Sequence record: OM386653.1
Length of the DNA stretch: 64,000 bases
Strand: one strand, 5' to 3'
From: Escherichia phage vB_EcoM_ESCO8
The position numbers and the translations under genes were made by a program. The notes under the pieces are model-generated. The model was given only the letters and a program-made list of their open reading frames with translations. It did no database searches and was not told the DNA's origin. Positions 10,689-40,347 of the stretch are shown here, piece after piece. How positions within the stretch are numbered: position 1 is the first letter of the stretch; each line of letters begins with the position of its first letter.

Positions 10689-11240
10689 TCAGGAAATATC
10701 AGATTGTGCTTTTAGATAAACAGCAAGGTCTGTATGCCATTTTCCTAAAAGATTTTGTCCTTTCCAACAGTCCTTATTTTCCACATCACGATCCCACATT
10801 CCCATTTTGATACCATAAATAGAATCATAAGGGCTTGCCTCTACGAACTCCTTATCTGCGTAAGCGATAAGTTTATTTTTGAGATCTTCATTTTGTGTGT
10901 ATTTAAGATACAAACCACGCTTGACAATCTTCTCCCGTAAAGAAGTCCAAGTAGCTTCATCGTAATCTTTAACTAATCTACCTAGTCGCTTATAATATGC
11001 CTGTTCTTTTTCTCCTGTATATCTTAGATCTCCGGTTAAAATAGAAGATGCAATGTTGTAATCATAAAACAAACATGCTTTTCTCCACATCATATATTGT
11101 TCCACACAAGTAAATTCAACAGAACTTGTAATAGAATTATTATACTTGGGAGCTAAAGGTTCAATAAAAGATGATAGATACCAGTTGCTAAATTCATCTT
11201 TTGCCGAGAAGAAGAACACATACTTATCAGTAATCCGCAT
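10689..11240 (-). CDS. NADAR-domain protein (YbiA-like)
   Basis: 183 aa; motifs FFFS..EFSNWY, VEQY..W.KA, and C-terminal GIKMGMW...G.N.LGK.H align with E. coli YbiA-type NADAR pattern. Confidence 0.65.
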   Translation of the reverse strand: MRITDKYVFFFSAKDEFSNWYLSSFIEPLAPKYNNSITSSVEFTCVEQYMMWRKACLFYDYNIASSILTGDLRYTGEKEQAYYKRLGRLVKDYDEATWTSLREKIVKRGLYLKYTQNEDLKNKLIAYADKEFVEASPYDSIYGIKMGMWDRDVENKDCWKGQNLLGKWHTDLAVYLKAQSDIS

Positions 11241-17659: not shown

Positions 17660-17662
17660 TTT

Positions 17663-18366: not shown

Positions 18367-18426
18367 TTATTGACTCTACCTACTAAATAATCTAGATTCT
18401 ATGTAAAATTTACTAAGGAGACTACT

Positions 18427-18591: not shown

Positions 18592-18601
18592 GGAGTAGAT
18601 T

Positions 18602-18883
18602 ATGACTGAAGAGTTTAAGCAATGGTTTGATAAAAACTTTCTACCCCATCTGTGGCCTAATGAAGAAGAACGTCAAGAGATGATGATCTACACTTGGCTT
18701 GCCTGGCGGGATGGCATCCGTAGCAAAGAAGCACAGGAAGAGGAACCTATTGCTTACATCTTTAAACATCCGGCAGGTAAGTTGTTTTGGGCTTTAACAG
18801 ACGAAAGTAATAAAGATCACCATGATGTTATTCCTGTGTATGCCAAGAACAATGTGAAGGATCAATCAGATGACAATGTATAG
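18602..18883 (+). CDS. hypothetical protein
   Basis: ORF track 93 aa. Confidence 0.5.
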   Translation: MTEEFKQWFDKNFLPHLWPNEEERQEMMIYTWLAWRDGIRSKEAQEEEPIAYIFKHPAGKLFWALTDESNKDHHDVIPVYAKNNVKDQSDDNV

Positions 18884-21343: not shown

Positions 21344-21820
21344 ATGTCTAAACGTTTTGGTCGTAATCAAAAAAGAAAGTTAAGTGCTCAACTAGCAACT
21401 TTGCAAAAAGAGGTTAACACTTTACAAAAAAGTGTTTGTGAACTTAAGGAACAAAACCAACTTGAAAAAGAGTGTATCCAGCTTACACAGGAAGTTATTG
21501 GTGAGTATTTTCCTTCACTAGTTCCTAAGAAGGTGGCTCTTAGGGAAAATCTACCTTTTACTTTATCCTTAATGCAAGCAAATGATAGATTCCAAACTGA
21601 AACTGATGATTTGATGTTTGCAATGCATCAATTACATGGTTTAGAATATACAGCACAAGTGGATAAACTTCGTAACATGTTATATGTGCGGGTAGAAACA
21701 CCTAAAGGTGAGACAGTAGCTTTTAATTATAATTTCCAACAGCTACCTGATCATATTATTGAACAAATTTTAAAACGAGATTTTGTTCCTATGCTTGTTA
21801 AACAAATTAAGAGAGGTTGA
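21344..21820 (+). CDS. hypothetical protein (coiled-coil N-terminus)
   Basis: ORF track 158 aa. Confidence 0.55.
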   Translation: MSKRFGRNQKRKLSAQLATLQKEVNTLQKSVCELKEQNQLEKECIQLTQEVIGEYFPSLVPKKVALRENLPFTLSLMQANDRFQTETDDLMFAMHQLHGLEYTAQVDKLRNMLYVRVETPKGETVAFNYNFQQLPDHIIEQILKRDFVPMLVKQIKRG

Positions 21821-21821
21821 A

Positions 21822-23558
21822 ATGGCTAAGAAAGAGTTGAGCTTCACTCCAACAGAAGAGCAAACAGCTATTAAGGAGGCTTTTCCAGACCATCGCTTTT
21901 TAACTATCCAAGCTAAATCTGGATCAGGCAAAACGTCAACACTTTATTTGCTGGCTAACAGTACAGAAGATCGCATTCTTTACTTAGCTTTCAATAAAAG
22001 CATGGCAGAAGAAGCACGACGTAAGATGCCACTAAATGTAGAATGCCGTACATTGCATTCTATTTGCTATCAATTCCTGGATCATCGTTTACGTGCAAAA
22101 CTGTCACGACCAGAAGGACAGTATGTTAACGTTGCAGGTACAGGTAGCGAGATAGCAAAGAAATTTAAGATTAATAATCTTATTGATAAACGAGGGAAAA
22201 CACTTTTAACTCGTGCTATGATCGGTTTAATGATCAAGCAAACCGTAGGTAAGTTTGAATTTTCGGATGATCCTTTTATCAGCCGTAAACATTTTCCTAG
22301 TGTACATCTTGCAGATATTAAAAGAAAAGGTATTAACGAACACAAACTAATTACAGAAGTAGTTAAGTATGCAAAACAACTGTGGCGAGAGCGCATCGAT
22401 CCTAACACAGATACTTTGATGACGCATGACACCTATGTAAAATTGTTTGAATTGTCTGGTGCTGATCTTGGTTATGATATTATTTTTGGTGATGAATTCC
22501 AGGATGTTAACCCTGCATTCTTGTCTATTCTGCGAAATGCTAAATCTGCAAAACAAGTAGTAGTGGTGGGTGACGAATATCAGAGCATCTACCAGTTCCG
22601 TGGAAGCCAAAATATGATGAAGGAAACCTCTACATATGGGGCAGAGCTTCCATTAACTGCTTGCTTCCGTTTTGGCCCCAAAGTGGCAAACATTGCCAAT
22701 ATGATTTTAAGCGATAAAGAACCTTTGCGTCATCCTTTGGTTGGTAAAGGCTTTGATACTGTAGTAGGTAGCTACAAATCAGATGTTGTAGACTATACAA
22801 AACCTTACACTATCATCTTTCGCAAGAATTTAACCTTGCTTATGGAGGCAATGGATCGTATTGCAGATGGGGAAGAAATTATTATTAACGTAGATACCAG
22901 AGATTTTATCTCTATGGTAGATAGTGTTAATGCTCTTCGGAGAGGAGATATTGAGAAAGTAAAACATGAAACTGTATTACCTTACGCAGACTGGAATGAA
23001 TTTGTTGAGTGTGCAGAGGCTGATCCAGATGCTAAACGCTTGTTAAACATCGTAGTTTCTGGTAAGGCGAACACTATAGCACATACACTTAGAACGCATA
23101 GAAATTCTCCTACAGCAAAAGTCACACTGACTACAGCACACAAGTCTAAAGGTTTGGAGTGGGATCAGGTTATTGTTGCTAATGATTTTCCTTCCAACTA
23201 TGATAAAAAGACTGGTGAATGGATAGGACTGGAAGAGGCAGAGCGAAACCTACTGTATGTAGCGCATACCCGTTGTGTTAAATGCTTACAATGGAACACA
23301 ACCGTACAGGAGATTATAGATATCAACCGTGTTGCAACAGAGAAAGTACCAACAAGCACCACTTTACCGATCAATGGTATTAAACTTGGTGTATTTGGCG
23401 CTGGCACATCTCGAAAAGCTGTAGAAAAATTTGTTGCAGATTCTTTTGATGGTAACTATAATCATGCACAAGCATATGAGAGTTGGTTAGAGGAAGGTGA
23501 AGGTGATTTTTTAGGTGAAATAAATCTTTTACCAGATATAAATAAACTGGTAAACTAA
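21822..23558 (+). CDS. SF1 (UvrD/Dda-like) DNA helicase
   Basis: Walker A AKSGSGKTS, motif II GDEFQDVN, later SF1-like motifs; start at ATG after GAGAGG RBS. Confidence 0.7.
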   Translation: MAKKELSFTPTEEQTAIKEAFPDHRFLTIQAKSGSGKTSTLYLLANSTEDRILYLAFNKSMAEEARRKMPLNVECRTLHSICYQFLDHRLRAKLSRPEGQYVNVAGTGSEIAKKFKINNLIDKRGKTLLTRAMIGLMIKQTVGKFEFSDDPFISRKHFPSVHLADIKRKGINEHKLITEVVKYAKQLWRERIDPNTDTLMTHDTYVKLFELSGADLGYDIIFGDEFQDVNPAFLSILRNAKSAKQVVVVGDEYQSIYQFRGSQNMMKETSTYGAELPLTACFRFGPKVANIANMILSDKEPLRHPLVGKGFDTVVGSYKSDVVDYTKPYTIIFRKNLTLLMEAMDRIADGEEIIINVDTRDFISMVDSVNALRRGDIEKVKHETVLPYADWNEFVECAEADPDAKRLLNIVVSGKANTIAHTLRTHRNSPTAKVTLTTAHKSKGLEWDQVIVANDFPSNYDKKTGEWIGLEEAERNLLYVAHTRCVKCLQWNTTVQEIIDINRVATEKVPTSTTLPINGIKLGVFGAGTSRKAVEKFVADSFDGNYNHAQAYESWLEEGEGDFLGEINLLPDINKLVN

Positions 23559-28180: not shown

Positions 28181-29341
28181 ATGTTTACAGTATTCGGCAA
28201 TCAAATCTTCCTGCGTCAGAAGTCTGGTACAGATATTGAAGAAATTCCAGCAGGAACTTTTGGTGTAGGTGTTACTCAAAGTGGCGAGTTCTTCCTGTAT
28301 CCTAAAAACGATATGGAAGTCCCTTCAGTAACATACGGTGATACTGATGATAAATCAGAACGTATTATCAAGACGTTCCTTAGCCGCAAAGGTAAAAACA
28401 CAGGTGTTCTCCTTGAGGGTACGAAGGGTAGCGGTAAAACTTTGCAAGCTAAAATGCTGTCTTCTGCTCTTCGTGAAATGGGTATTCCTACTATTTCTAT
28501 CGGTAGTGCTTTTAATGGTGAAGGCTTTATCAATTTTATGTCTAAAATCACACAACCTGTGATGATTATGATCGATGAATTTGATAAACTGTATGCTGAA
28601 AAAGATGCACAGGATGGTTTGCTTACCCTGCTGGATGGTGTTGGTGGCTATGACAAGCTGTTTGTATTGACTAAAAATGATGGTTATGTATCAGAATTTT
28701 TGCGTAATCGCCCTAGCCGTATTTTCTACAGCTTTAACTATAAGAAACTACCTAAAGCTACTATGGATGATTATCTGGCTAAAAATCTGGAGAACAAAGC
28801 CTTTTTACCAGATTTTGAAACGCTTTATAATCTGTCCGTGGACTTGAACTTTGATATTGTTCAGTCATTAGTAGAAGAACTTAACCGTTACCCTAATGAC
28901 AAATTCTCTGATGCACTTGCATTAATGGGTATCAGTATTACTGAACACCGCTATGCTGCAAAAGAAGTTAAACTTCTGAAAGTTAACGGTGTAGATCGTA
29001 CAGGAGATGTTTCGGCAGATACCGATATTGACGGTATGACAGCACAGGGTTTGTTTAGCGGTAATCGTTATGTTGTAGCTGTAGACCATAAGCTAGGAGA
29101 AGAGCATCTTCCTGAAATGGAAGGAGTCGTTACCGTAGAAGATAAAGACGAAGAAGGTGACTACTACTGGGGTGTAGACCGTATCTTGCTGACGTATGAT
29201 GAAAAACACATCCGTACAATGGGCGGTGACGGTTATCACTTTATGTTCACCGATGATAAAGGTAACAACATTGAAGTTGTTATTAAAAACAAAGAACGTA
29301 AAAACTACACAGAGTATGTGTTTGGTGGTCGTTCTTACTAA
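28181..29341 (+). CDS. AAA-type ATPase (paralog B)
   Basis: 386 aa; GTKGSGKT, IMIDEFDK, RPSRIFYSFNY; N-terminal ~250 aa similar to 12488..13615. Confidence 0.7.
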   Translation: MFTVFGNQIFLRQKSGTDIEEIPAGTFGVGVTQSGEFFLYPKNDMEVPSVTYGDTDDKSERIIKTFLSRKGKNTGVLLEGTKGSGKTLQAKMLSSALREMGIPTISIGSAFNGEGFINFMSKITQPVMIMIDEFDKLYAEKDAQDGLLTLLDGVGGYDKLFVLTKNDGYVSEFLRNRPSRIFYSFNYKKLPKATMDDYLAKNLENKAFLPDFETLYNLSVDLNFDIVQSLVEELNRYPNDKFSDALALMGISITEHRYAAKEVKLLKVNGVDRTGDVSADTDIDGMTAQGLFSGNRYVVAVDHKLGEEHLPEMEGVVTVEDKDEEGDYYWGVDRILLTYDEKHIRTMGGDGYHFMFTDDKGNNIEVVIKNKERKNYTEYVFGGRSY

Positions 29342-29348
29342 GTGATAA

Positions 29349-29375
29349 AAGGAGGCGAAAGCCTCCTTTATTTGT
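29349..29375 (+). terminator. Rho-independent terminator
   Basis: AAGGAGGC-gaaa-GCCTCCTT followed by TATTTG. Confidence 0.6.
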
Positions 29376-29387
29376 ATGGAGGGTATT

Positions 29388-29579
29388 ATGGATCATTATT
29401 TTGTTTTTAAAGATAAAGTTGATACCGCAGGTGGTCACGTTGCTAAAAATGATCGTGACATTAAAGAAGTATTAGGAGATCTGATTAACATTTTAGAACA
29501 AAAAGAGTTGCTTTTAGATAAGGATATTGCTAGACTTCTTGGTGTGGGGATAAGTGACATACAAAGATTACCATTCTAA
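29388..29579 (+). CDS. hypothetical protein
   Basis: GGAGGG RBS then ATG; 63 aa. Confidence 0.4.
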   Translation: MDHYFVFKDKVDTAGGHVAKNDRDIKEVLGDLINILEQKELLLDKDIARLLGVGISDIQRLPF

Positions 29580-29590
29580 AGGGGAAGAAA

Positions 29591-29746
29591 ATGCTTACAG
29601 ATGATGAATATAAAGCTATCCAAGAAAAACTAACGGAACTTGAAATTCTTGCTGTCAATATTAAAGATCAATCACATGCTGGAAAGTTACTACATCAAGA
29701 GATCAATAAAATTAAGCAGATGATATTCTTTTGGACGGAGGATTAA
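29591..29746 (+). CDS. hypothetical small protein (51 aa)
   Basis: Manually read ORF MLTDDEYKAIQEKLTELEILAVNIKDQSHAGKLL...; RBS AAAGGGGAAG. Confidence 0.35.
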   Translation: MLTDDEYKAIQEKLTELEILAVNIKDQSHAGKLLHQEINKIKQMIFFWTED

Positions 29747-29748
29747 AA

Positions 29749-30405
29749 ATGACTGTTAAGCATATTTCTTTTGATGTATGGAATACTCTTATTACTGCTA
29801 ATCCTTTGTATGCAGAAGAACGCAACAAGGTTATTGCCGAGTATGCCTCTTGTTCTGAGGTAGAAGCAGCTACCGTATATAAAGAGGTAAAAACTCTCCT
29901 GGATTTAAAAGCAGAAAAAGGCATTTGTGGAACATCTAGAAATGCTTGGGAAACACTTTCTGCTCGTTTGAACATTGATCTTGATAAAGTAGATGGGTTA
30001 AAAAGAGACTGTTTAGCAATGTTTATAAAACATCCTCCAACATTAAACCCTGAACTTTGCAAGAAGTTGGAAGAGCTAAGTTCAACCTATTCTTTGAGTA
30101 TTAAAAGCAATACTAATTTTGTACCTGGTAGTTTTTTAGCTGTATATTCTGGCTTGACAAAATTACCATTCGACTTTATGCATTTTTCTGACGAGTTTTG
30201 CTTGTGTAAACCAGATCCTAGGTTTTTTAAACTCTCTTTTGATGAAATGGTAACGTTTGATCTCGCACCAGAGGAGATCTTACACGTTGGAGATAGTTTG
30301 ATCTATGATGGAAAAGCTGTTGACATAGGGATGAAGTTCTGTCATATTATTAATCCAGAAGACTTGTTGGCTAAACTTAAAAAAGAGGAACTTATTAATG
30401 CGTAA
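29749..30405 (+). CDS. HAD-superfamily hydrolase (phosphatase-like)
   Basis: Motif I FDVWNTL near N-terminus, motif IV VGDSLIYDGK near C-terminus; 8-nt overlap with next gene. Confidence 0.55.
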   Translation: MTVKHISFDVWNTLITANPLYAEERNKVIAEYASCSEVEAATVYKEVKTLLDLKAEKGICGTSRNAWETLSARLNIDLDKVDGLKRDCLAMFIKHPPTLNPELCKKLEELSSTYSLSIKSNTNFVPGSFLAVYSGLTKLPFDFMHFSDEFCLCKPDPRFFKLSFDEMVTFDLAPEEILHVGDSLIYDGKAVDIGMKFCHIINPEDLLAKLKKEELINA

Positions 30406-31255
30406 TCAAATTCAACATTTTGCTAATACTTTTACTAACCTGAAGGAAGCAAAATTTAACATTGCAGATTATTCCAAGCTAAAGTTTGGTAGTAACCAGG
30501 CAGCAAAAAGAATGGGGCGCATTCTGGCTGAAAGTTTCTTTTCCAAGTATGAAGAACGACTGGTAAATGAAAGTTTTGTTGTTATTCCATCTCCATATAA
30601 CTATGTGAAAAATGCAGCTACAGTGTTATCTGAACATTTTGTAGATCACCTCAACTACCTAATCTCTATCAAAGGAGGTAAAGCAGTGGAGTGGGATATC
30701 GTTCATCGTAAAGTGAGCTATATCAATGATTATGGATTTCTTAGCAAAGAAGATCGTAAGGCTTTGATCGATGGTGACACTTTCTCTATCAATCGTGATT
30801 TCTGGGGTAATAAAACTCTGATTTTCATTGATGATGTTAATATTACAGGAACGCACGAAGAAAAACTTATTGAAATTTTAGACAAAGAAGGTGTTGAAAA
30901 CGATACGTTTTTCCTGTACTTTGCAAAGTATGAAGGTACAGAAGCCAATACCGAAGCTGCACTTAACTTCAACTATATCAATAACCTGGCAGCTTTTATT
31001 AAAATGATTAAACAAGAAACTGATGCTAAATGTTTGGTTCGTCCTATTAAGTATCTAATGAGTCAAAGCGAAGTTGATTTTAAAATTGCACTTTCACAGC
31101 TTCCTTTGTATTATGTAGAACAACTGTTCTTTGGTTGCCTTGCAGAAGGCTACAATAACATTGAAAAATATAAAGAGAACTTTGATTTCCTACGTCAATT
31201 TTTTGAAAGCAACATTATCAACAAATCTAATGTTAAAGGGGATTATTATGTCTAA
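30398..31255 (+). CDS. Phosphoribosyltransferase-like protein (divergent type I PRTase)
   Basis: 285 aa; LIFIDDVNITGTHEE resembles PRPP-binding loop of type I PRTases; translationally coupled to HAD and macro genes. Confidence 0.45.
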   Translation: MRNQIQHFANTFTNLKEAKFNIADYSKLKFGSNQAAKRMGRILAESFFSKYEERLVNESFVVIPSPYNYVKNAATVLSEHFVDHLNYLISIKGGKAVEWDIVHRKVSYINDYGFLSKEDRKALIDGDTFSINRDFWGNKTLIFIDDVNITGTHEEKLIEILDKEGVENDTFFLYFAKYEGTEANTEAALNFNYINNLAAFIKMIKQETDAKCLVRPIKYLMSQSEVDFKIALSQLPLYYVEQLFFGCLAEGYNNIEKYKENFDFLRQFFESNIINKSNVKGDYYV

Positions 31256-31964
31256 TAAAGTAATGACTTTCGGAGATCCTATCACCAATATTACAGAAAA
31301 AGATTTTGGGCGTGTAGCAACAGATAAAGATGGTGTCTTAAGAATTCGTGTACAAGGTATTACAGCACAGGATGAATATGCTGTGTATGTTTCAGGTCTT
31401 AACTATATTGATGATCGCATTACACAAAACTTTGCACTGATCGGTGGTGTAGAGAAAATGTATTGGGAAGATGAAATTGTAACAAGTTATCCGGCAGGTA
31501 TCATTGAGGTATACGGTGATCTTTTAGCAGCAGCCGAGAGAGGCGATATAGACGCTATAGCACACTGCTGTAACTGTTTTTGCACTATGGGTAGTGGTAT
31601 TGCACCAAAAATTAAAAGCAAGTGGCCTGGTGCGTTTAAAGCAGATTGTGCCACTAAACATGGTGATTATAAAAAATTAGGTACGTTTACCAAATATATA
31701 GAAAACAATTTGACAATTTATAATTTATATGGACAATATGGTTATAGTCGTCGTGAGGAAGGTAAGCGTGACCTGAATTATGAAGCTATCTACAATGCGT
31801 TAGATAGTATGGGAGACGATGTTGTATCTTCAGGCGGTAAAATTGTAGGTTTACCAATGCTTGGTTGTGGTTTGGCTGGAGGTTCTTGGAGTATTGTAAA
31901 ACTTATGATCGAAGAAACTCTAGTAAACAAAGGTTTAAATGTAATTGTTTACAAACTGAAATAA
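31248..31964 (+). CDS. Macro-domain protein with unknown N-terminal domain
   Basis: ATG preceded by AAAGGGG; C-terminal half has macro-like IDAIAHCCNCFCTMGSGIA and LPMLGCGLAGGS motifs; ORF-track start 31131 rejected. Confidence 0.55.
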   Translation: MSNKVMTFGDPITNITEKDFGRVATDKDGVLRIRVQGITAQDEYAVYVSGLNYIDDRITQNFALIGGVEKMYWEDEIVTSYPAGIIEVYGDLLAAAERGDIDAIAHCCNCFCTMGSGIAPKIKSKWPGAFKADCATKHGDYKKLGTFTKYIENNLTIYNLYGQYGYSRREEGKRDLNYEAIYNALDSMGDDVVSSGGKIVGLPMLGCGLAGGSWSIVKLMIEETLVNKGLNVIVYKLK

Positions 31965-31973
31965 GGAGAAAGT

Positions 31974-32180
31974 ATGGCAGGTGTTTTAGCAGTATTAGGT
32001 TGTTTTATTGTTGTGTTTTTGATTGTGTTAATCCCTAGTTGGCTACTGCTTTTAGCATACAACTATATGATTGACATTATCGGCTTAGACTGGCATCATG
32101 TTCCTGTAACGTTTTGGAGTGTAGTCTGTGTGACGTTCATTCTTGCGGTACTTCGTGGTATCTTTCAATCTAACAAATAA
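31974..32180 (+). CDS. hypothetical small membrane protein
   Basis: ORF track 68 aa; two TM helices. Confidence 0.45.
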   Translation: MAGVLAVLGCFIVVFLIVLIPSWLLLLAYNYMIDIIGLDWHHVPVTFWSVVCVTFILAVLRGIFQSNK

Positions 32181-32194
32181 GAGAGGATTTTTAT

Positions 32195-32443
32195 ATGCGT
32201 AAAGTAAATGTTGAAGTGCTTGAAAAATTTAGAAACACTCGTGATTGTACTATCGGCAAGGTTTACGAGGCTATTCTCCTTGAAGATGGAGATCAAGTTC
32301 CTGCCCCGTATCACGCCTTTAATGGTCAAATCAGCAAAGTGGAAGGTGGTCTTGCTATTTGCTTTATTGATGACGTAGGTGATGCTGTAGCTTTCCCTGT
32401 CATTAACAAAGAAGATAAACTTAAAATTACAGAACTGAACTAG
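32195..32443 (+). CDS. hypothetical protein
   Basis: ORF track 82 aa. Confidence 0.5.
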   Translation: MRKVNVEVLEKFRNTRDCTIGKVYEAILLEDGDQVPAPYHAFNGQISKVEGGLAICFIDDVGDAVAFPVINKEDKLKITELN

Positions 32444-32471
32444 TTGACTTTCTTTAAAAACAGTTTATAGT
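32444..32471 (+). promoter_or_regulatory. sigma70-like promoter with leader hairpin ahead of TerC gene
   Basis: TTGACT-16nt-TATAGT followed by CATAGAG and hairpin GCGGAGGA-ttgt-CCTCCGC (32484-32502), same architecture as early-array promoters. Confidence 0.5.
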
Positions 32472-32520
32472 ATAAGACATAGAGCGGAGGATTGTCCTCC
32501 GCATTAAAGAGGAGAAAAGA

Positions 32521-33498
32521 ATGCAACTGGGTTTCCCAATTATTGATGTGGTTGTTTTAGTGGGTATTTTAGTCTTGTCGATTTGTATTGACTTCTTTGG
32601 ACACAGAGAAAACAAAGAAATTTCATTTAAATCTGCAATTGGCTGGTCAATTTTCTGGATTGGGGTATCATTAGCCTACTATGGTTTTGTATACTTCCAA
32701 CACGGTGCTGATTTTGCGAGCTTGTTCTTGAGTGGGTATGTGTTGGAGAAATCTCTTTCTGTAGATAACTTAGTAGTATTTGTAGCAGTATTCGCAAGTT
32801 TTGGTATTAAAAGCACACACTTGCAGCACAAGATTCTACTTTGGGGTATTGCAGGTGCGATTGTCTTCCGAGGTGTGTTTGTAGCAGTAGGTACTTACTT
32901 GTTGAGTTTGGGCTGGTATGTTAATATCTTCTTCGGTGCTGTCATCCTTTTCTGTGCGGCTAAAATGGTATTCGCTGGAGATAATGATGCAGAAGTTGAT
33001 TACTCTAAACACTGGGCTACTCGCATTGTTCGTAAGCTGTTCCCTGTATCTGATCAGATGGATGGTGAGAAGTTCTTCACAATCAAAAATGGTGTTCGTG
33101 TAGCAACTCCGGCTCTGGTTTGTGTGTTTGTAATGGAAATGGTTGACGTAATCTTTGCAGTAGACTCTGTTCCAGCAGTAATTGCAGTGACACAAGAACC
33201 TCTGCTGGTGTTCTCTTCGATGCTCTGTGCAATCTTAGGTTTACGTGCTCTGTTCTTTGTTCTTAGTGTTGCACTGAAGTATTTGGTTCATCTGGAGAAA
33301 GCAGTTATCGTAGTCCTGGTGTTTGTGGGTGTAAAACTGATGTATCACCCGTTTGCAGAAACTCTGCACGCAAAAGTGAGTTTCCTGCCAGCACACATTG
33401 ACCCGACGATCAGTATGTATATTGTGTTAGGTACTCTTGGGCTGGGTGTTCTTGCAAGTTTAATCTTCCCTGAAAAAGAAGACCAGGCTGTTGCTTAA
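32521..33498 (+). CDS. TerC-family integral membrane protein
   Basis: 325 aa, multi-TM; conserved EKSLSVDNLVVF and DVIFAVDSVPAV motifs. Confidence 0.75.
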   Translation: MQLGFPIIDVVVLVGILVLSICIDFFGHRENKEISFKSAIGWSIFWIGVSLAYYGFVYFQHGADFASLFLSGYVLEKSLSVDNLVVFVAVFASFGIKSTHLQHKILLWGIAGAIVFRGVFVAVGTYLLSLGWYVNIFFGAVILFCAAKMVFAGDNDAEVDYSKHWATRIVRKLFPVSDQMDGEKFFTIKNGVRVATPALVCVFVMEMVDVIFAVDSVPAVIAVTQEPLLVFSSMLCAILGLRALFFVLSVALKYLVHLEKAVIVVLVFVGVKLMYHPFAETLHAKVSFLPAHIDPTISMYIVLGTLGLGVLASLIFPEKEDQAVA

Positions 33499-33504
33499 TT
33501 CATT

Positions 33505-33528
33505 AAGCCCCTTCGGGGGCTTTATTGA
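33505..33528 (+). terminator. Rho-independent terminator
   Basis: AAGCCCC-ttcg-GGGGCTT followed by TATTGA. Confidence 0.55.
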
Positions 33529-33537
33529 GGTGATCTG

Positions 33538-33744
33538 ATGGTGGTTTTACGTGTTCTTTGGATTCTGTTTGAAAATATTTGTTTTGCTCTAGGTTTGTTT
33601 TGTTTGATTTTTATCTTGACAACATATATTGATAACCATACAATTACTATCAACAGGAACGGAGAACAGATGTATTGTTTCTCTAGGGATTTTAAAAATT
33701 GTGTTGAGATTTTAAATGAGAGGGTTACAAATGAAAAACATTAA
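33538..33744 (+). CDS. hypothetical small membrane protein
   Basis: ORF track 68 aa. Confidence 0.35.
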   Translation: MVVLRVLWILFENICFALGLFCLIFILTTYIDNHTITINRNGEQMYCFSRDFKNCVEILNERVTNEKH

Positions 33745-34321
33745 ATCTTTTATTGTTGCAGTTGTTTTAGGTAGTGCATTGCTGGTAGGTTGTGATGATT
33801 CTGAAAATGTACAAAATCAACGTTACCAACAAACACCAAATCAGATGGTAGATGAACAATATGTAAATCAGCCTGCACCTCAAGTTGTTCAAGCAGCACC
33901 TGCACAACCTTCAACAGTTGTTGTGCAAGGAGGCGGCAGTGGTTCTTCTGGCGTAGGTGAGTTTGCTACAGGTATGCTTCTTGGTCATATGTTGAGTGGT
34001 AATAGTGGCGGTGGTGGTTATAGAGATGGCGGTAGCAATACAACAATTATCAATAACAACGCTGCTCCTACAACTAATAGTAAAGCATATACAACACAAA
34101 AGCATAGGTTTTATGATAAACAAGGGAATACATATACAACCACTAAACAAAACACAATTAAGCAGCAAAGTGTACAAACGTATTCACGCCCATCAACAAC
34201 AAAAGTGAATAGTGATTACTCTGCTCGTAAGTCTTACTCAAGTCCTATTAGCTCTTATAGTAAGTCTTCGAAAAGTTATTCTTCGTCGAAACGTAGTTTT
34301 AGTAGCTCACGTCGTCGTTAA
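33731..34321 (+). CDS. Putative lipoprotein with Ser/Tyr-rich low-complexity tail
   Basis: Start MKNIKSFIVAVVLGSALLVGC (lipobox LVGC) after GAGAGGG RBS; G-rich and S/Y/K-rich C-terminus. Confidence 0.5.
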   Translation: MKNIKSFIVAVVLGSALLVGCDDSENVQNQRYQQTPNQMVDEQYVNQPAPQVVQAAPAQPSTVVVQGGGSGSSGVGEFATGMLLGHMLSGNSGGGGYRDGGSNTTIINNNAAPTTNSKAYTTQKHRFYDKQGNTYTTTKQNTIKQQSVQTYSRPSTTKVNSDYSARKSYSSPISSYSKSSKSYSSSKRSFSSSRRR

Positions 34322-34356
34322 TAATTTAATACAGATTAAATAAGAAGGAGAAACAG

Positions 34357-35208
34357 ATGAAACTAGAAGTTGGTAAAGTGTATCGCCTGGAAGGTTGGAT
34401 CTTTAATCAAGAAATTCTTGAGAAGAATAAAGATGGTTTTGAGTTTGTTGGTACTACCAAGGAAAGTATGCACAATGACGAATACTGTAAATTCGTTGGT
34501 AAAAATACAGGTCAAGAACAATTTTGCTTTAAGAGCGCAATCGGTGATTATGCTTCTGTAATGCCAACACCAGAAAAGACTTCGAAGCAATATACTGTCT
34601 TTGGTGTAAAACTTGAAGAACTTGTAGAACACCCACGTTTTGAAGAGTTCAAGGTTGCTGCAATGCGCAAGCATTCTGAAATTAAAATACATAATTTGTT
34701 TGATTTAGAAGATCGGTTTGATATCTTTATGTATGATCGCAGGGAAAAGCATTTTGATGCAACGACTTCAAAATTTGCTGCAACAGAGGATATTAAAATC
34801 CTTGATGTTGATACCTTTCTTGAGAGTGTATCGTTTGTATTCATTCCTAAATACAAAAAACGTAGTGATCATAAACGTGTGAAAGGAACTCCTCGTAAAA
34901 AACGTACTGTAAACAAAGCAACTTTGCACTTCACTTCTGGTGATAAATATACTCTCAAAGGGTTTGAAAGTGTTTTGTATGATGCTGGAACGGGTAATAT
35001 CAAGTTTATCATTAAGGCAACCTACAAAGGTACGGTATTGCACGAAGAGGCTGTTACACTACCTGTATTCGATATCTCTCGTGTTGAGGTACGGGGTGTT
35101 AAAGAGTCCTTCGATCTGGATTTCTTAACTGCTAATACCACGGGTTATGTTAATCTGGAAGCAGATGGAGCATTTATTACTACAAATTATTTAGATATGT
35201 TTGTTTAA
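34357..35208 (+). CDS. hypothetical protein
   Basis: ORF track 283 aa. Confidence 0.55.
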   Translation: MKLEVGKVYRLEGWIFNQEILEKNKDGFEFVGTTKESMHNDEYCKFVGKNTGQEQFCFKSAIGDYASVMPTPEKTSKQYTVFGVKLEELVEHPRFEEFKVAAMRKHSEIKIHNLFDLEDRFDIFMYDRREKHFDATTSKFAATEDIKILDVDTFLESVSFVFIPKYKKRSDHKRVKGTPRKKRTVNKATLHFTSGDKYTLKGFESVLYDAGTGNIKFIIKATYKGTVLHEEAVTLPVFDISRVEVRGVKESFDLDFLTANTTGYVNLEADGAFITTNYLDMFV

Positions 35209-35276
35209 TACTTAACTTGTGTTATGATGGTGGTATAGAAGTATCACCATCTACTAAAGAATATGGAGGAAATTGA

Positions 35277-36380
35277 ATGTCCAGTCCTTTTATCAGTGCC
35301 GTAAAAAGCAAACCGTCTGAAATGAGTGTATTCACGGCAACAACAGAAAAAAGTAAGTCTTTGTTTGCTCCAACTGCTATGGATGCAAGTCCTGTATATG
35401 CCCCTGCTGTTGCACGACCTGTACAAATGCTGCCTCCAATGTCTCGTGAAGAGATTGAACAGGTTGGTGCTGATGCAGGACTTACTCTTCGTAACCTTAA
35501 TGCTGAAGTGCTTAAACACCAGCGTTCATCTCAGGGAGATGAAATGAGTGAACGTTTAACTGCGCTTATTAAGCAAGCAAAGCAACTTGATCCTAACTCT
35601 ATTAAACAATCTAAAGGTTTAGGTAAACTAGTTAAGAAAGTTTTAGGTATGAAAGAAGATTTGTTTGGAGAATTTGACACCATCAATAACCGTATTGAAG
35701 GTTTGGTAAAGACACTCCAAACAGACTTGAAAAAAGAAGAAGATTCTTTACGATATCTGCAACGTTTAGAAGAGGCTATTGCAAAATATGCCCTTAGTTT
35801 AAACAGGGATATAGAGCTTCTAACAGCTACTTATGAAAAAGAAGAAATTCGCCTTAATACACTGCCTGAAAATGAGGTAGAAGAGCGTCAACGTACTCGT
35901 GATACTATGGATCTGCTTGAAATTCGTATTGCAGACCTGAAAGCCTTACGCTTACTATGTGTTCAGATGGGGCCACGTGTACAAAGTATGCAGAAAGTAT
36001 CTGCAAGTTTGATGCGATCAGCCCGTAATATTGTGAATAATGTTATCCCTGCTTACTCTGCAAACTTTTCTATGCATATTGAAAGTCTACGCCAGAAGAA
36101 AGCAGCCGATACACAGAACAATGTACTAAATGAATTTAATGCTGCTATTGCAATGGGTAGTGATTTGGCTGCACAAAACCAAATTGAAGCTACACAACTT
36201 GCTAATCGTCAAGTATTGGATATTGAAACATTACGTCGTGATCAAGAAAACTTGGTTAAAATGTTGGAAGAAACTAACCGAATCAACACTGAAGCCCGTG
36301 CTGCTCGTATTGATTACATTCAAGAAGTGCAATCTCTTGAAGATGGTATGATTCAAACTGTTAAACGTGGTCTACTTTAA
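35277..36380 (+). CDS. TelA-like (toxic anion resistance family) protein, tentative
   Basis: 367 aa, predominantly coiled-coil, size and context (between TerC and TerD/vWA) fit TelA/KlaA family; not confirmed by motif. Confidence 0.4.
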   Translation: MSSPFISAVKSKPSEMSVFTATTEKSKSLFAPTAMDASPVYAPAVARPVQMLPPMSREEIEQVGADAGLTLRNLNAEVLKHQRSSQGDEMSERLTALIKQAKQLDPNSIKQSKGLGKLVKKVLGMKEDLFGEFDTINNRIEGLVKTLQTDLKKEEDSLRYLQRLEEAIAKYALSLNRDIELLTATYEKEEIRLNTLPENEVEERQRTRDTMDLLEIRIADLKALRLLCVQMGPRVQSMQKVSASLMRSARNIVNNVIPAYSANFSMHIESLRQKKAADTQNNVLNEFNAAIAMGSDLAAQNQIEATQLANRQVLDIETLRRDQENLVKMLEETNRINTEARAARIDYIQEVQSLEDGMIQTVKRGLL

Positions 36381-36393
36381 GGAGAAATATATT

Positions 36394-36600
36394 ATGAATA
36401 TTAAAATTTACAAACTGTCTGGTTCTATGATTGCTGTTCAGTATGATAATGAAGATCGTTATGTTCTCCTCCAGGATGCTTGGTTAGATGATCCTAATGT
36501 ATTCACTGTCCTGCGAGAACTACGTTCTGTCTATACCTATTCTTCTAAAGATGGTTTTGACAATTCAACGATGGAATTGGTAAAAGAGGAGAATGTGTAA
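36394..36600 (+). CDS. hypothetical protein
   Basis: ORF track frame trimmed to ATG after GGAG RBS. Confidence 0.45.
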   Translation: MNIKIYKLSGSMIAVQYDNEDRYVLLQDAWLDDPNVFTVLRELRSVYTYSSKDGFDNSTMELVKEENV

Positions 36601-36800
36601 TGAGTAAAGATATTCACTTAACTCGTGAAGAATTGCAAACCATTATGGAAGATGCTTTCATTGATGGTTGGAAACAAGGTCAAGAATCAGATTGGTATGA
36701 TGCCGAAGATTTTTTGTATTATCATATGACTGCACCTGTAGACGAGCAAACACACTCTGAAACAACTTTGGCTTTAATTGATCTTAAGGCTGGTGTATAA
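36600..36800 (+). CDS. hypothetical protein sharing motif with C-terminus of next gene
   Basis: 66 aa; LTREELQTIMEDAFIDGWKQG matches ISLNELQKITREAFYLGWKVG in 36800..37363. Confidence 0.45.
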   Translation: MSKDIHLTREELQTIMEDAFIDGWKQGQESDWYDAEDFLYYHMTAPVDEQTHSETTLALIDLKAGV

Positions 36801-37363
36801 TGGGGTGTTTTAGTTTCTTGTGCAAAGAGTCTGGTAATGCTGCTCTTTCTACCTCTTTTGATGGCTCTCCTTGCTACCTATTTCTTTTGAAAGGTGGTAA
36901 GGTTGTCGAAGAGATGTATGGGAATTATGATAGCTATGGTAGTGTTTTCTCTAACGAAGAAGATAAACATGGCAATCGTAAAAGATTTAAGTGGTCTATG
37001 CCTTGGGAAGAAGTTTGTAATTTGATGTTCTCTTCCGATCTTGGAGATGGGATTGCTCTGGTATTAGAAGAGCACTTTACAGGTGAGATCCCAACAGAAA
37101 GATCTGAAGAAGATCCTAACCAGGGTTGGGGTGATGGAGAAGAAGATCCAGATTGCTTCTTCAACACTGAAAATAATAAATTTAAACGTGTTGACAATCC
37201 TTACCACAAAGTGCATAATACTTGCATTGAGACAGAAGAAGACTCAAAGCTAGAAATTGAAGATGATTTAGTTGTAACTATCTCTTTAAACGAGTTGCAA
37301 AAAATCACTAGAGAGGCTTTCTATTTAGGTTGGAAAGTAGGTAAAGGAGGAGATAGTGCTTAA
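36800..37363 (+). CDS. hypothetical protein
   Basis: ORF track 187 aa. Confidence 0.5.
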   Translation: MGCFSFLCKESGNAALSTSFDGSPCYLFLLKGGKVVEEMYGNYDSYGSVFSNEEDKHGNRKRFKWSMPWEEVCNLMFSSDLGDGIALVLEEHFTGEIPTERSEEDPNQGWGDGEEDPDCFFNTENNKFKRVDNPYHKVHNTCIETEEDSKLEIEDDLVVTISLNELQKITREAFYLGWKVGKGGDSA

Positions 37364-37625
37364 ATTTAATATCAAAGACGACAAATCAGATGAACCTAAA
37401 TGTTTTGGAGAACTTGACGTAGGTGATACATTTGTATATTATGTTGCCTATCAAGATTCTGGTTTAGATACGTTCAGAAACTTAGTGTTTATTAAAGTTA
37501 ATACAAACCAAGCAATGTGTCTGAACGGTTCGCAAAGAGGTCAACTTAGCTGTATTTCGTATGATACAGAAATGGTAGAAGTGGATTTAGAAGTTACTAA
37601 CATTACACTCAGAAAGGAGAAATAA
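37356..37625 (+). CDS. hypothetical protein
   Basis: ORF track 89 aa; GTG start. Confidence 0.4.
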   Translation: MLKFNIKDDKSDEPKCFGELDVGDTFVYYVAYQDSGLDTFRNLVFIKVNTNQAMCLNGSQRGQLSCISYDTEMVEVDLEVTNITLRKEK

Positions 37626-37626
37626 T

Positions 37627-38421
37627 ATGTCCAATAAAATCAGTCTTAAAAAACGTCAAGAAACTCTTACCGTATCTCTGCGTAAGAAAAAGATTAACGA
37701 TGTTGTTCTTCGTGTCGGTAGCGCCTTAGATATTTCGGGTAGTATGTGTGAGCTGTATCGTGATGGCACTGTTAGTGATTTTGTAGGTAAGCTACTGCCG
37801 TTTGGTATGAAGTTTGATGATAATGCACAGATTGACATGTGGGCTTTCAATAGTTCTTCTTTTGAACTGCCTCCTGCAACGGCTGATGTATATGATGATT
37901 ATGTCGGCTCTTGTATGTCTAATGTTTGCATCAATGGTGGTACAGCTTATGCTCCAGTAATGCAAGAGATCTATGATACATACTTCGGTAGTGTACCTAT
38001 GAAAAATATTACACGCGAAGTCGTTGAGTATGAAGAAGTTCCGGCTAAGGGTTTCCTTGCTAAACTAACTGGTAAAAAAGAACGTGTAGAAGTTACACGT
38101 ACTGTTGTAGAACAGGTTGTAGATACTGATGCACAAGTTGATCGTACTCCTGCAATGATTTTCTTCCAAACTGACGGGGAGAACATGGATACTTCAGCAG
38201 TACGTAGTTTGCTGAACAAACACCGCAACACTCCTGTTTACTGGTTTATGGTTGGTGTAGGTAATGCAAACTTTAAATTCCTGAAAGACTTGGCAAAAGA
38301 ATACGATAACGTTGATTTTATCGGTATTGCAGATTTGTCCTTGTCTGACGAAGAACTTTACGATAAACTGCTATCCGAAGAGTTTGGCGAGTGGGTTAAA
38401 AAATTTGGAGCAAAAGCGTAA
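37627..38421 (+). CDS. von Willebrand factor A (vWA) domain protein (TerY-like)
   Basis: 264 aa; MIDAS motif LDISGSM near N-terminus, later FFQTDGEN; adjacent to TerD. Confidence 0.6.
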   Translation: MSNKISLKKRQETLTVSLRKKKINDVVLRVGSALDISGSMCELYRDGTVSDFVGKLLPFGMKFDDNAQIDMWAFNSSSFELPPATADVYDDYVGSCMSNVCINGGTAYAPVMQEIYDTYFGSVPMKNITREVVEYEEVPAKGFLAKLTGKKERVEVTRTVVEQVVDTDAQVDRTPAMIFFQTDGENMDTSAVRSLLNKHRNTPVYWFMVGVGNANFKFLKDLAKEYDNVDFIGIADLSLSDEELYDKLLSEEFGEWVKKFGAKA

Positions 38422-38493
38422 AAAACGCTTGACTTTGTAGAAAAGATTAGTAAAATAGACAACGTAAATTAACAACAAAGGAGATAATAAATT

Positions 38494-39090
38494 ATGACTC
38501 AGAAAATTTCCCTGAAAAAAGGTTCTAGCGAAAAAGTTTCTCTGAAAAAGATTGCACCAGCACTGAAACGCATTCGTCTGGAATTCTCTTGGAAATCTAA
38601 CGAAAAACTGGATCTGGATGTTAGTGCTCTGATTTGCCGACACAATGCATCTGGTCTGCCGGAACTGTTGTCTCCTCGCCACCTGGTATGCTACGCACAG
38701 AAATTTGATCCTGAACGTTCTACTTTTGCAGGTGAAGATGTTCGTGACGGTGTAGGACAAATGGAGCAGATTGATGTTACACTGGATAATATCTCTGCTG
38801 AAGCACAGGAAATTGCATTCGTAATCACTATTGATGACGAAACGGGTAAGAAACGCCTTGGTCACGCTACCGAAGGTTTCCTTAAAATCTTCGATGATGA
38901 ACGTAACGTTGAACTGCTGGATTTTGACTTCTTGGCTCCAGAACTTGCAGGTAATACCATTTGCCACGTTGCCTCCCTGGTGCGGGAAGATAGCGAATGG
39001 AAACTGAAAGCATATGGTGTAGGTAAAGCTGGACTTGACATTTATGATGTAGTTAAAGCGTTTGGCGCTGGCGACGATTGGTTCGAGTAA
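38494..39090 (+). CDS. TerD-family protein
   Basis: 198 aa; ISLKKGSSEKVSLKK, DLDVSAL, ITIDD, EWKLKAYGVG pattern matches TerD/TerE/TerZ family as recalled. Confidence 0.75.
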   Translation: MTQKISLKKGSSEKVSLKKIAPALKRIRLEFSWKSNEKLDLDVSALICRHNASGLPELLSPRHLVCYAQKFDPERSTFAGEDVRDGVGQMEQIDVTLDNISAEAQEIAFVITIDDETGKKRLGHATEGFLKIFDDERNVELLDFDFLAPELAGNTICHVASLVREDSEWKLKAYGVGKAGLDIYDVVKAFGAGDDWFE

Positions 39091-39099
39091 TAAATCATA

Positions 39100-39124
39100 G
39101 CGCCCTTCGGGGCGCATATTTTAA
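39100..39124 (+). terminator. Rho-independent terminator
   Basis: GCGCCC-ttcg-GGGCGC followed by ATATTTT. Confidence 0.6.
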
Positions 39125-39142
39125 ATAGAAGAGGAGAAAACA

Positions 39143-39745
39143 ATGGGTATTACTTTAGAAGGTCAAAAACTTATTCGCAGCGGTAATTTTCTTGTGGATA
39201 TTGACAACAATGAAGATTATGCTTTAGAAGTTAGTGATGTACTGTTTAATGCTTTGCAGTCTGGTTTCAATTTTGAAGTTTATGAAGTAATCCGTGGAAC
39301 TAAACTCAGAGAAACCCTTGGATCAACTAGTGATGTTTATTCTGCGATCTGGCAATATTTCGGGTTAATGGATGGTAAGACATACCTTACTGATAGTTAT
39401 TCTGAAGATGTTGTTTATCTTGATATGGAAGAGTTTCGTCGTCTGTTCAAAAGTGAAGAAAATGAAGAAGAGGGTGAACTTTTTGAAGGAATTACTCTCG
39501 AAGGTAATGTTGAAATTGTGTATAAAGCAGGAAAAACATTCCACTTGCGTGAAAACGGTAAAGCAAAAGTTGATTTTGTAAACAAGACAGTAACAACTGA
39601 ACATAATTATCTTAAAGATGGTCAACCAGCTTTTGAACGTGTAACAATTAAATTTAAAGTATTGTCTGCACTAGTTACGGATCAAGAACGTATTGATTTT
39701 GTAGAAGATGGTGTAGTAACTCATACAAAGGTTTACAACATCTAA
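39143..39745 (+). CDS. hypothetical protein
   Basis: ORF track 200 aa. Confidence 0.55.
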   Translation: MGITLEGQKLIRSGNFLVDIDNNEDYALEVSDVLFNALQSGFNFEVYEVIRGTKLRETLGSTSDVYSAIWQYFGLMDGKTYLTDSYSEDVVYLDMEEFRRLFKSEENEEEGELFEGITLEGNVEIVYKAGKTFHLRENGKAKVDFVNKTVTTEHNYLKDGQPAFERVTIKFKVLSALVTDQERIDFVEDGVVTHTKVYNI

Positions 39746-39777
39746 CAGGGTGTAAGAGGGGGATAATCCCCCTCCAC

Positions 39778-39806
39778 TTGCAAAACAGCCTCTTCTGTGT
39801 TACAAT
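39778..39806 (+). promoter_or_regulatory. sigma70-like promoter
   Basis: TTGCAA-17nt-TACAAT; preceded by hairpin GAGGGGG-ataat-CCCCCTC (39759-39777). Confidence 0.45.
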
Positions 39807-39837
39807 AAAAGTTCGTTTAACAAAATAGGAGGCAAGT

Positions 39838-40347
39838 TTGTCAATAAAAACCTTTGTCGCAATTGCGTTACTATCCTTAACTGCTTTTACATTTACACCT
39901 GTTGTGGCGCAAGCCGAAGCTGCAAACGTAAAAACTGCTAAAGTAGTTCACAAGTGTACAAAGCGTGATAGTAAAGAAAATCTATTAGCTTGTGCAATCT
40001 ATGCAGAAAGTCGTAATCAAGGAAAGCGAGGTATGTCTGCTGTTGGTAATGTAGTATTGAATAGGGCTAGAGATTCATATTTCCCTGATACTATAAAAGA
40101 AGTTTTGTTTCAAAAAGGACAATTCTCTTACACAAAGACATTCAACGTTATGGAACGTGATAAGTGGAAGGAAGCTAAGACTATAGCAGAACGTCTACGT
40201 TATCTCGATACGCATTTTCCAGAATTACGAATTGCATTAGATATTACAAAAGGAGCATTATACTTTAAAAAATCTACAATAAGAGCACACTGGGAAAAAG
40301 ATATGGTTCTAGTGTACCGCTACAAAGAACATCAATTCTATCGCTAA
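39838..40347 (+). CDS. Cell-wall hydrolase (SleB/Hydrolase_2-like) with signal peptide
   Basis: TTG start after AGGAGG RBS; signal peptide ending AQA; LACAIYAESRNQG...GNVVLNRAR motif. Confidence 0.55.
   Translation: MSIKTFVAIALLSLTAFTFTPVVAQAEAANVKTAKVVHKCTKRDSKENLLACAIYAESRNQGKRGMSAVGNVVLNRARDSYFPDTIKEVLFQKGQFSYTKTFNVMERDKWKEAKTIAERLRYLDTHFPELRIALDITKGALYFKKSTIRAHWEKDMVLVYRYKEHQFYR

Follow-up and report, generated by a model that had tools for sequence, protein, structure and literature searches.

A macrodomain protein of Escherichia phage vB_EcoM_ESCO8 with an orphan N-terminal module, a candidate enzyme of counter-defense against NAD+- and ADP-ribose-based immunity

The window analyzed here is the whole stretch of 64,000 nucleotides taken from Escherichia phage vB_EcoM_ESCO8 (hereafter ESCO8; sequence record OM386653.1), and the gene in question lies at 31248..31964 on its plus strand. 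The product consists of a macrodomain preceded by an acidic domain of 82 residues, N-dom, that resembles nothing described. To judge from its sequence, the macrodomain is very probably an active hydrolase used against immunity based on NAD+ or ADP-ribose. The best explanation for the protein as a whole, which we put forward with some reserve, is that of a two-domain counter-defense enzyme acting in a split NARP1-AP pathway, where the genes that rebuild NAD+ would lie elsewhere in the genome. More tentatively still, ADP-ribose-1''-phosphate may be its main substrate, and the reaction may feed this unlinked NARP1.

The gene and its macrodomain nature are already known or directly anticipated by recent work, as existing records label it "putative phosphatase," "phosphatase," or, in the BASEL records, "putative macrodomain protein." What is new is the finding that N-dom is an orphan module passed between a MazG-like enzyme and a macrodomain, the predicted split NARP1-AP arrangement, and the conserved embedding of the gene beside a pair of genes coding for a HAD hydrolase and a phosphoribosyltransferase (HAD-PRTase_3). 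Specific counter-defense roles were assigned to phage macrodomains only recently: Adpp counters RES-type NAD+ phosphorolysis, and AdfM counters DarT2.

A Macrodomain of the Glutamine Type

The sequence-only reading had delimited the gene at 31248–31964, and this is borne out. Within the enclosing open reading frame (ORF; 31131..31964, +), the ATG at 31248 has a Shine-Dalgarno-like AAAGGGG 7 nt upstream, and the start overlaps the stop codon of the upstream phosphoribosyltransferase (PRTase) gene by 8 nt (ATGTCTAA). Because of these two features, the product of 238 residues is the most likely one; some GenBank records use a start 18 nt upstream, which gives 244 residues.

The same reading saw a macro domain in the C-terminal half because of its glycine-rich loops, and profile searches agree. 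Pfam Macro (PF01661) matches residues 106–217 with 29 bits (cut-off 22), and PHROG 335, labeled "phosphatase," matches the protein with E = 6e-64. Among PDB sequences, residues 83–237 match SCO6735 (phmmer, 7e-16), BT1257 (2.5e-15), and TARG1 (4e-10), with DarG weaker. The AlphaFold2 model has a pLDDT of 78 at residues 81–90 and mostly of 80–97 over residues 91–238, where two blocks of ten residues drop to 71–73. Foldseek aligns it with human TARG1 (E = 7e-12, TM 0.88), and TM values range from 0.73 to 0.88 across DarG and human TARG1. The two loops, MGSGIA (114–119) and GCGLAGG (206–212), are indeed present and are invariant among homologs in an alignment of 16 sequences. We are confident that residues ~83–238 are a macrodomain.

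The active site is not of the TARG1 type. The dyad Lys84/Asp125 of TARG1 is replaced by Gln163 and Ala210 (K84/D125 numbered as in PMC9411070), and Gln163 also stands at the position of Lys80 of DarG. TARG1 and DarG are thus of the same macrodomain class and fold, with the catalytic lysine replaced by Gln163 in the phage protein. SCO6735 of Streptomyces coelicolor (PDB 5E3B), the best sequence match with a solved structure, also lacks the dyad, and BT1257 is another Gln-type, ALC1-like macrodomain. H106, N109, Q163, and G211/212 align with H24, N27, Q85, and G128 of SCO6735, in columns that are invariant or nearly so in the 16-sequence alignment. Mutating these residues of SCO6735 abolishes or substantially reduces its activity: Gln85, Asn27, and Gly128 are required to hydrolyze thymidine-linked ADP-ribose, and His24 is required for the fold (PMC9411070). 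The long "mobile loop" of SCO6735 can be aligned almost without gaps, and the phage protein has R168, R169, K173, and R174 there. The SCO6735 pattern (Gln, Asn, His, Gly, extended loop) is thus complete, and both the ADP-ribose-binding loops and the active-site residues are intact. Unlike the ESCO8 protein, SCO6735 is bacterial, has a single domain, is regulated by DNA damage, and is strongly basic. Its pI is 9.7, whereas that of the phage macrodomain is near-neutral (7.75) and that of N-dom is 4.4; as a discriminator of DNA versus metabolite substrates, charge is weakly suggestive.

The Closest Characterized Relative Is Adpp

By blastp, the NARP1-adjacent macrodomains of Pakpunavirus (JG004/EPA1 proteins) are 46% identical to the ESCO8 one (120 bits), and Adpp of Vibrio phage Gary is 40% identical (110 bits, 3e-35), both sets of comparators coming from Table S1 of bioRxiv 10.64898/2026.01.28.702374. 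SCO6735 (33%, 74 bits), T4-type Tk.4, also named AdfM (30%, 63 bits, pairwise E = 5e-17), and TARG1 (29%, 58 bits) follow. In a rough neighbor-joining tree, all phage macrodomains form one clade with SCO6735/BT1257 outside, and the ESCO8 macrodomain is nearest to the NARP1-linked ones of Pakpunavirus (JG004/PN09). Adpp of Gary is in the same clade and shares with it the motifs AHxCNCF, MGxGIA, NxYGQY, and GCGLAGG. Osterman et al. found that Adpp (KNV71_gp137) converts ADP-ribose-1''-phosphate, the product of the RES-domain defense aRES, to ADP-ribose, after which NARP1 rebuilds NAD+; Adpp is required for NARP1 to overcome aRES, and an in-operon macrodomain is present in 15% of NARP1 phages (bioRxiv 10.64898/2026.01.28.702374).

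In the mechanism proposed here, the macrodomain would bind ADP-ribose and hydrolyze the group attached to C1'' of the distal ribose. ADP-ribose-1''-phosphate made by RES-domain NAD+ phosphorylases (aRES) would become ADP-ribose by removal of the phosphate, and the Adps/Namat pair of the phage would rebuild NAD+ from it, making up the "split" NARP1-AP pathway. An additional or alternative activity, and a likely one, is the hydrolysis of thymidine-linked ADP-ribose on DNA (the DarT2 modification), as by AdfM/SCO6735; it would complement a NADAR enzyme acting on guanine-linked ADP-ribose (DarT1). The candidate activities (on ADP-ribose-1''-phosphate, on thymidine-linked ADP-ribose, and others) are not mutually exclusive.

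One may also ask whether the enzyme does simple housekeeping, clearing ADP-ribose derivatives made by the phage itself, for example O-acetyl-ADP-ribose produced by a sirtuin, or, in the manner of Poa1p, ADP-ribose-1''-phosphate arising in RNA repair or in reactions of the tRNA-splicing type. Foldseek does match the model to yeast Poa1p (TM 0.72–0.74), several homologs carry the JGI label "O-acetyl-ADP-ribose deacetylase," the relative muut encodes an RNA ligase and a phosphoesterase, phAPEC8 encodes a Sir2, and a passage of PMC7824862 discusses macro domains in phage RNA repair. Yet the sequence similarity to Poa1p is marginal (E = 0.013), the macrodomain gene lies away from those for the RNA ligase and Sir2, and the members of the phage clade that were directly tested, Adpp and AdfM, both gave counter-defense phenotypes, all of which makes housekeeping very unlikely.

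NARP1-Type Genes Are Encoded in the outra Genome, Away from the Macrodomain Gene

The region 29700–33500 of the window matches Escherichia phage outra (MN850645; Justusliebigvirus, Stephanstirmvirinae), a phi92-like myovirus, at 100% identity. Its identity to dozens of relatives is 98–99.8%; phi92-type phages are among them, as are JohannJBalmer (Bas62), EmilieFrey, and PaulScherrer from the BASEL collection. For the macrodomain gene itself, the identity is 100% to outra and 98–99% to other Justusliebigvirus records. In outra, a Prs-like and a NAMPT-like gene are adjacent to each other by the tRNA cluster (outra_30/31; record 16172–18870, L022 3173–5871). Their products are 39% and 44% identical to Adps and Namat of Pseudomonas phage EPA1 and 98–99% identical to the muut pair, and the pair is conserved in 55 Justusliebigvirus records. 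In outra, Adps and Namat are thus found in the same genome as the macrodomain gene, as in the Adpp system; within the 64-kb window itself, tblastn gave no NARP1 pair. In EPA1, the homolog of the macrodomain gene directly follows Adps and Namat, and the neighbors of more distant homologs on large phage contigs are NAMPT, NUDIX, a second macrodomain gene, and SIR2. NARP3 (PnuC/NadR), considered as another candidate, is unrelated to the macrodomain locus. The original NARP1 study counted only macrodomain genes within two genes of NARP1 (bioRxiv 10.64898/2026.01.28.702374). If the split arrangement is true, NARP1-AP-type protection would be more common than such operon-based counts suggest.

Several observations weigh against this arrangement. 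Unlike that of Adpp, the ESCO8 macrodomain gene (~79.1–79.8 kb in outra) is outside the NARP1 operon, ~60 kb from the NARP1-type pair, and in outra it is not within two genes of Adps/Namat. Phages of the sister genus Phapecoctavirus keep the macrodomain gene next to the PRTase gene, and phAPEC8 lacks the NARP1 pair both at the syntenic tRNA-cluster site and in its first 78 kb, which argues that the macrodomain gene predates NARP1 or is independent of it. The gene is also tightly linked to HAD-PRTase_3, with 8-nt overlaps, and the conservation of this linkage points to another pathway context (see following). In the neighbor-joining tree, Adpp of Gary and AdfM (Tk.4) lie close together inside the same phage clade, so the tree fails to separate the two activities. 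Finally, the activity of Adpp is known from one protein and one preprint.

NADAR and the Possibility of an AdfM-Like Role

The sequence-only reading had paired the macrodomain with a NADAR gene (10689..11240) as two ADP-ribose hydrolase folds of one genome, and the NADAR assignment holds (PF08719, 126 bits). The BASEL phages Bas60, Bas61, and Bas62 share the NADAR protein AdfN^Bas60, which neutralizes DarT1, restores plating of three DarTG1-sensitive phages, and is inactive against DarTG2 (PMC11825919). The validated allele is that of Bas60, and the ESCO8 copy was compared with the Bas62 protein, bas62_0106; since the two match at 182 of 183 positions, the ESCO8 NADAR is nearly identical to a member of an experimentally validated counter-defense group. 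The idea of two folds set against ADP-ribose-based immunity is therefore largely right, although it is not new: T4 has the same pairing, with the NADAR AdfN (anti-DarTG1) and the macrodomain AdfM/Tk.4 (anti-DarTG2) (bioRxiv 2025.11.20.689424). The two NADAR proteins belong to different NADAR clades. As for the suggestion of pressure from ADP-ribosylation-based host defenses, selection by NAD+/ADP-ribose defenses is well supported by the likeness to AdfN^Bas60, but ADP-ribosylation may be the wrong sub-type for the macrodomain gene, because its nearest characterized relative, Adpp, acts on free ADP-ribose-1''-phosphate.

ESCO8-type phages and Bas60–62 would be tractable in Escherichia coli and would combine NADAR, macrodomain, and NARP1 within a single genome, so that the two candidate substrates of the macrodomain could be separated genetically.

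Directly upstream of NADAR, and probably co-transcribed with it since it abuts the NADAR start, is a gene of 390 codons (11241..12413, −) whose product has four CapR-homology/treble-clef zinc-finger repeats and a weak match to T5orf172 (GIY-YIG-like); it is annotated as hypothetical in relatives.

The main alternative to the split NARP1-AP pathway, possible but less likely, is that the protein has the role of AdfM. It would then act on phage single-stranded DNA carrying the DarT2 modification, freeing its thymidine of ADP-ribose, and might also bind and inhibit DarT2, while NADAR covers DarT1 (guanine), as in T4. The stand-alone Tk.4 is distantly homologous to the ESCO8 macrodomain, both have Gln at the position of the catalytic Lys, and its loss sensitizes T4 to DarTG2 (bioRxiv 2025.11.20.689424). 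The link to tk.4 is also found by tblastn: T4-type tk.4 genes (E = 3e-10) are among the members of the macrodomain family, which occurs in about 2986 phage records out of 50,697. SCO6735 hydrolyzes thymidine-linked ADP-ribose on DNA and rescues cells from DarT, and its Gln85, Asn27, and Gly128 are conserved here. Both T4 and ESCO8 have an anti-DarTG1-type NADAR, in ESCO8 one of the validated type that is inactive on DarTG2, and the macrodomain gene persists in phAPEC8-type phages that lack NARP1 at the site and in the 78 kb mentioned. On the other hand, the protein resembles AdfM and SCO6735 clearly less than it does Adpp and the NARP1-associated macrodomains, Tk.4 lacks an N-terminal domain and its loop following the Gln is shorter, and neither the macrodomain nor N-dom has the basic character of the DNA-acting SCO6735. 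The biochemical activity of AdfM was, moreover, itself inferred (bioRxiv 2025.11.20.689424).

DarG offers a similar two-sided comparison. It is the best NCBIfam match of the protein (NF048014), but with 48 bits for a cut-off of 250 and over profile positions 4–147 of 338 only. The DarT-binding C-terminal domain is absent and no darT-like gene neighbors the macrodomain gene among the genes of the window, so that the protein is not a member of the DarG family. AdfB of ICP1, a DarT binder of 77 residues, is not a macrodomain and is irrelevant as a comparator.

N-dom Is a Mobile Module

N-dom carries two motifs, D19-x-G21-R22-x-A24 and F62-x-L-I-G-G67...M-Y-W73-E-D-E, and D19, G21, R22, A24, F62, G67, and W73 are invariant in an alignment of 27 sequences. 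The sequence-only reading had described an N-terminal extension of ~90 residues that matched nothing it recognized. The lack of matches stands, for some 82 residues: profile searches gave no significant match in Pfam, NCBIfam, or PDB sequences, a structure search gave no significant PDB match, and Foldseek against BFVD gave nothing at E ≤ 0.001. What does not stand is the notion of an extension, because the region is a separate mobile domain common to a MazG-like gene of sister phages. N-dom is rare. When 1.8 billion representatives were scanned exhaustively with HMMER, six matched, two of them repeat proteins whose resemblance is confined to the "FxLxGG..W" stretch; a word-indexed search by N-dom profile gave three proteins only. 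In the long repeat proteins P0125 (766 residues) and P0121 (4335 residues), 6 and 20 stretches match only "NFxLxGG..xYxWE" of N-dom; they are probably beta-strand repeats that look like it by chance.

Most close homologs of the macrodomain (60–68% identical, on phage contigs of ~150 kb) are proteins of ~153 residues without N-dom. Fusion of N-dom to a macrodomain is restricted to the Justusliebigvirus cluster and to one metagenomic protein that is 53% identical (P0004). In the macrodomain-only relatives, a gene of 180–190 codons often lies between the PRTase and macrodomain genes and overlaps the start of the latter. The first ~75 residues of its product are homologous to the ESCO8 N-dom, and the ~100 C-terminal ones are MazG-like. 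The MazG assignment is based mainly on tblastn similarity to annotated phage MazG-like pyrophosphatases (E = 2e-12) and on a visible E-x-x-E...E-x-x-D motif, the Pfam MazG score of the region (17.6 bits) being below the cut-off and the PDB giving no match. One can thus identify three gene orders: PRTase, N-dom-MazG, macrodomain; PRTase, N-dom-macrodomain (the order in ESCO8); and PRTase, macrodomain. N-dom is also found in 25 N-dom-MazG proteins, in a protein of 264 residues with an unrelated C-terminus of 190 residues, and in a stand-alone protein of 71 residues, these last two being encoded away from PRTase. In ESCO8, the junction of N-dom and macrodomain still has the "YP" with which N-dom ends in the MazG proteins (27-sequence alignment). 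From these sequence comparisons we conclude that N-dom is a real and conserved module that is mobile, rather than a part added to the macro fold. Most simply, the N-dom-macrodomain fusion arose when the MazG module was lost in frame. The reverse course, where MazG was inserted into an ancestral N-dom-macrodomain fusion, is possible and compatible with the neighbor-joining tree.

What N-dom does is suggested by its promiscuous fusions, which point to an adaptor or regulatory role; for an adaptor proper we hold the evidence to be evenly balanced. The domain would be a separate, acidic, small beta-barrel module, found in sister phages at the N-terminus of a MazG-like NTP pyrophosphatase. Most likely it would tie interchangeable nucleotide hydrolases to a common partner, and it would not be catalytic for the macrodomain reaction. 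Since it occurs fused to a macrodomain, to a MazG-like enzyme, or to an unrelated C-terminus, as well as alone, N-dom is a candidate targeting or regulatory domain in nucleotide-based counter-defense.

The aRES inhibitor aRad1 was considered as a counterpart of N-dom, both being small with conserved Gly and Trp, and was rejected, as the published aRad1a sequence shows no resemblance to it. In two metagenomic contigs, P0122 (60 residues) and P0127 (62 residues), the protein agrees fully with N-dom up to residue ~37 and diverges from there on. These truncations, which correspond to 31248..~31360, are frameshifts that come either from faulty assembly or from natural pseudogenes of the fusion.

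The Gene Is Embedded in a HAD-PRTase_3/Ter Cluster

The macrodomain gene belongs to a co-oriented run composed of two small ORFs, HAD, PRTase_3, N-dom-macrodomain, and two further small ORFs (Table 1), a setting that the sequence-only reading had not taken into account. A terminator-like hairpin after the AAA+ ATPase gene is the probable upstream limit of the transcription unit, and the ORF of 68 codons downstream of the macrodomain gene reads as hydrophobic. The order HAD, PRTase, (N-dom-MazG), macrodomain, TerC, TelA, TerF, with other genes before TerC and before TelA, is kept in relatives down to ~50% identity. Macrodomain and PRTase proteins 98–100% identical to those of ESCO8 are also found in MG065656, MG065639, and related "Campylobacter phage" records (host C. 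jejuni, ~146 kb), which look mislabeled or derived from contaminating coliphage.

Table 1. Positions of the features discussed, in coordinates of the window
Feature	Position	Strand	Remarks
NADAR glycohydrolase	10689..11240	−	PF08719, 126 bits; 182/183 identical to bas62_0106
AAA+ ATPase	28181..29341	+	Conserved upstream of the cassette in relatives
Terminator-like hairpin after AAA ATPase gene	29348..29369	+	Matching terminator annotated in phage Paula
HAD-superfamily hydrolase	29731..30405	+	PF00702; phrog_14393; overlaps PRTase start by 8 nt
ComF-like phosphoribosyltransferase (PRTase_3)	30398..31255	+	PF15610, 143 bits; intact IFIDDVNITG PRPP loop
N-dom-macrodomain gene	31248..31964	+	238 aa plus stop; ortholog of Phi92_gp185 / bas62_0068
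N-dom, residues 1–82	31248..31493	+	Orphan, acidic (pI 4.4), beta-rich small domain
Macrodomain, residues 83–238	31494..31961	+	Gln-type, ALC1-like/TARG1 class, phage Adpp/AdfM clade
Two small conserved ORFs (68 aa, 82 aa)	31974..32443	+	phrog_16065, phrog_17459
Promoter-like site ahead of terC	32444-32471		
Hairpin before terC	32484-32502		
TerC/Alx membrane protein	32521..33498	+	PF03741, 133 bits; TIGR03718, 323 bits
TelA	35277-36380	+	Ter cluster
vWA-TerF-like	37627-38421	+	Ter cluster
TerD	38494-39090	+	Ter cluster
200-aa ORF directly after TerD	39143-39745		No Pfam match
Cell-wall hydrolase (Hydrolase_2)	39838-40347		End of Ter cluster span 28181..40347

This setting raises the question of whether the macrodomain works with its neighbors. 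Iyer et al. 2021 (PMC7824862), in their account of phage Ter systems, describe PRTase and HAD enzymes that synthesize a signal, and in ESCO8 the HAD, PRTase_3, TerC, TelA, vWA-TerF, and TerD genes of such a system form one block, which is fairly complete as a phage Ter cluster. The passages of PMC7824862 and PMC5512222 consulted on Ter systems name no macrodomain or MazG-like enzyme among the components. Under a Ter-type pathway, the PRTase would build a ribose-5-phosphate-linked, nucleotide-like metabolite from PRPP, the HAD, MazG-like, and macrodomain modules would trim phosphates or ribose-linked groups, and N-dom would tether the hydrolase to PRTase/HAD. What they make would be used by the phage Ter system, in superinfection exclusion or signaling, or else in a new NAD-related salvage. 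The 8-nt overlaps of macrodomain with PRTase and of PRTase with HAD argue for this, as do the conserved gene order, the presence of the Ter genes in the window, the signal synthesis described by Iyer et al., and the fact that the slot after PRTase_3 is taken by various nucleotide hydrolases (MazG-like, macrodomain, and, in Rhizobium phage TM61, where it follows HAD-PRTase_3, a NUDIX gene).

The association is, however, not a consistent one. The overlapping HAD-PRTase_3 pair is also present in Xanthomonas phage XaC1, Rhizobium phage RHph_TM61, and Caulobacter phage CcrColossus (L025, L026, L027), in all three with no macrodomain gene nearby. Conversely, the macrodomain family (~3000 phage records) is about twenty times more widespread than PRTase_3 (156 records). 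Because the pair occurs without the macrodomain and the latter is more common, the linkage is real within Stephanstirmvirinae but not general. As N-dom is also found away from PRTase, and as we know of no product of the Ter biosynthetic module that has ever been identified, a role of the macrodomain in the Ter pathway seems quite improbable.

A broader version of this idea is that the HAD-PRTase_3-(N-dom-hydrolase) cassette is an undescribed phage pathway, making or recycling an NAD+/ADP-ribose-related or nucleoside-like metabolite. N-dom would then dock interchangeable hydrolases, plugging the macrodomain, the MazG-like pyrophosphatase, and the domain of 190 residues into one complex or host target, and the substrate of the macrodomain would be neither aRES-derived ADP-ribose-1''-phosphate nor DarT2-modified DNA. 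We regard this as improbable too. Through its conserved linkage to HAD-PRTase_3 and the Ter genes, the macrodomain gene may also help to trace what this module makes, a question of long standing.

Two observations concern other genes of the window. HAD phosphatases typically have an Asp two residues after the nucleophile Asp. Motif I of the HAD protein, FDVWNTL, has a Trp at this place, and "phosphatase" may therefore be the wrong activity for it. The UvrD/Rep-type helicase gene at 21783..23558 (+) codes for an intein-free protein of ~590 residues, as in phage Paula, and its ortholog in Bas62 (L001 3085–5859) contains an intein of 347 residues.

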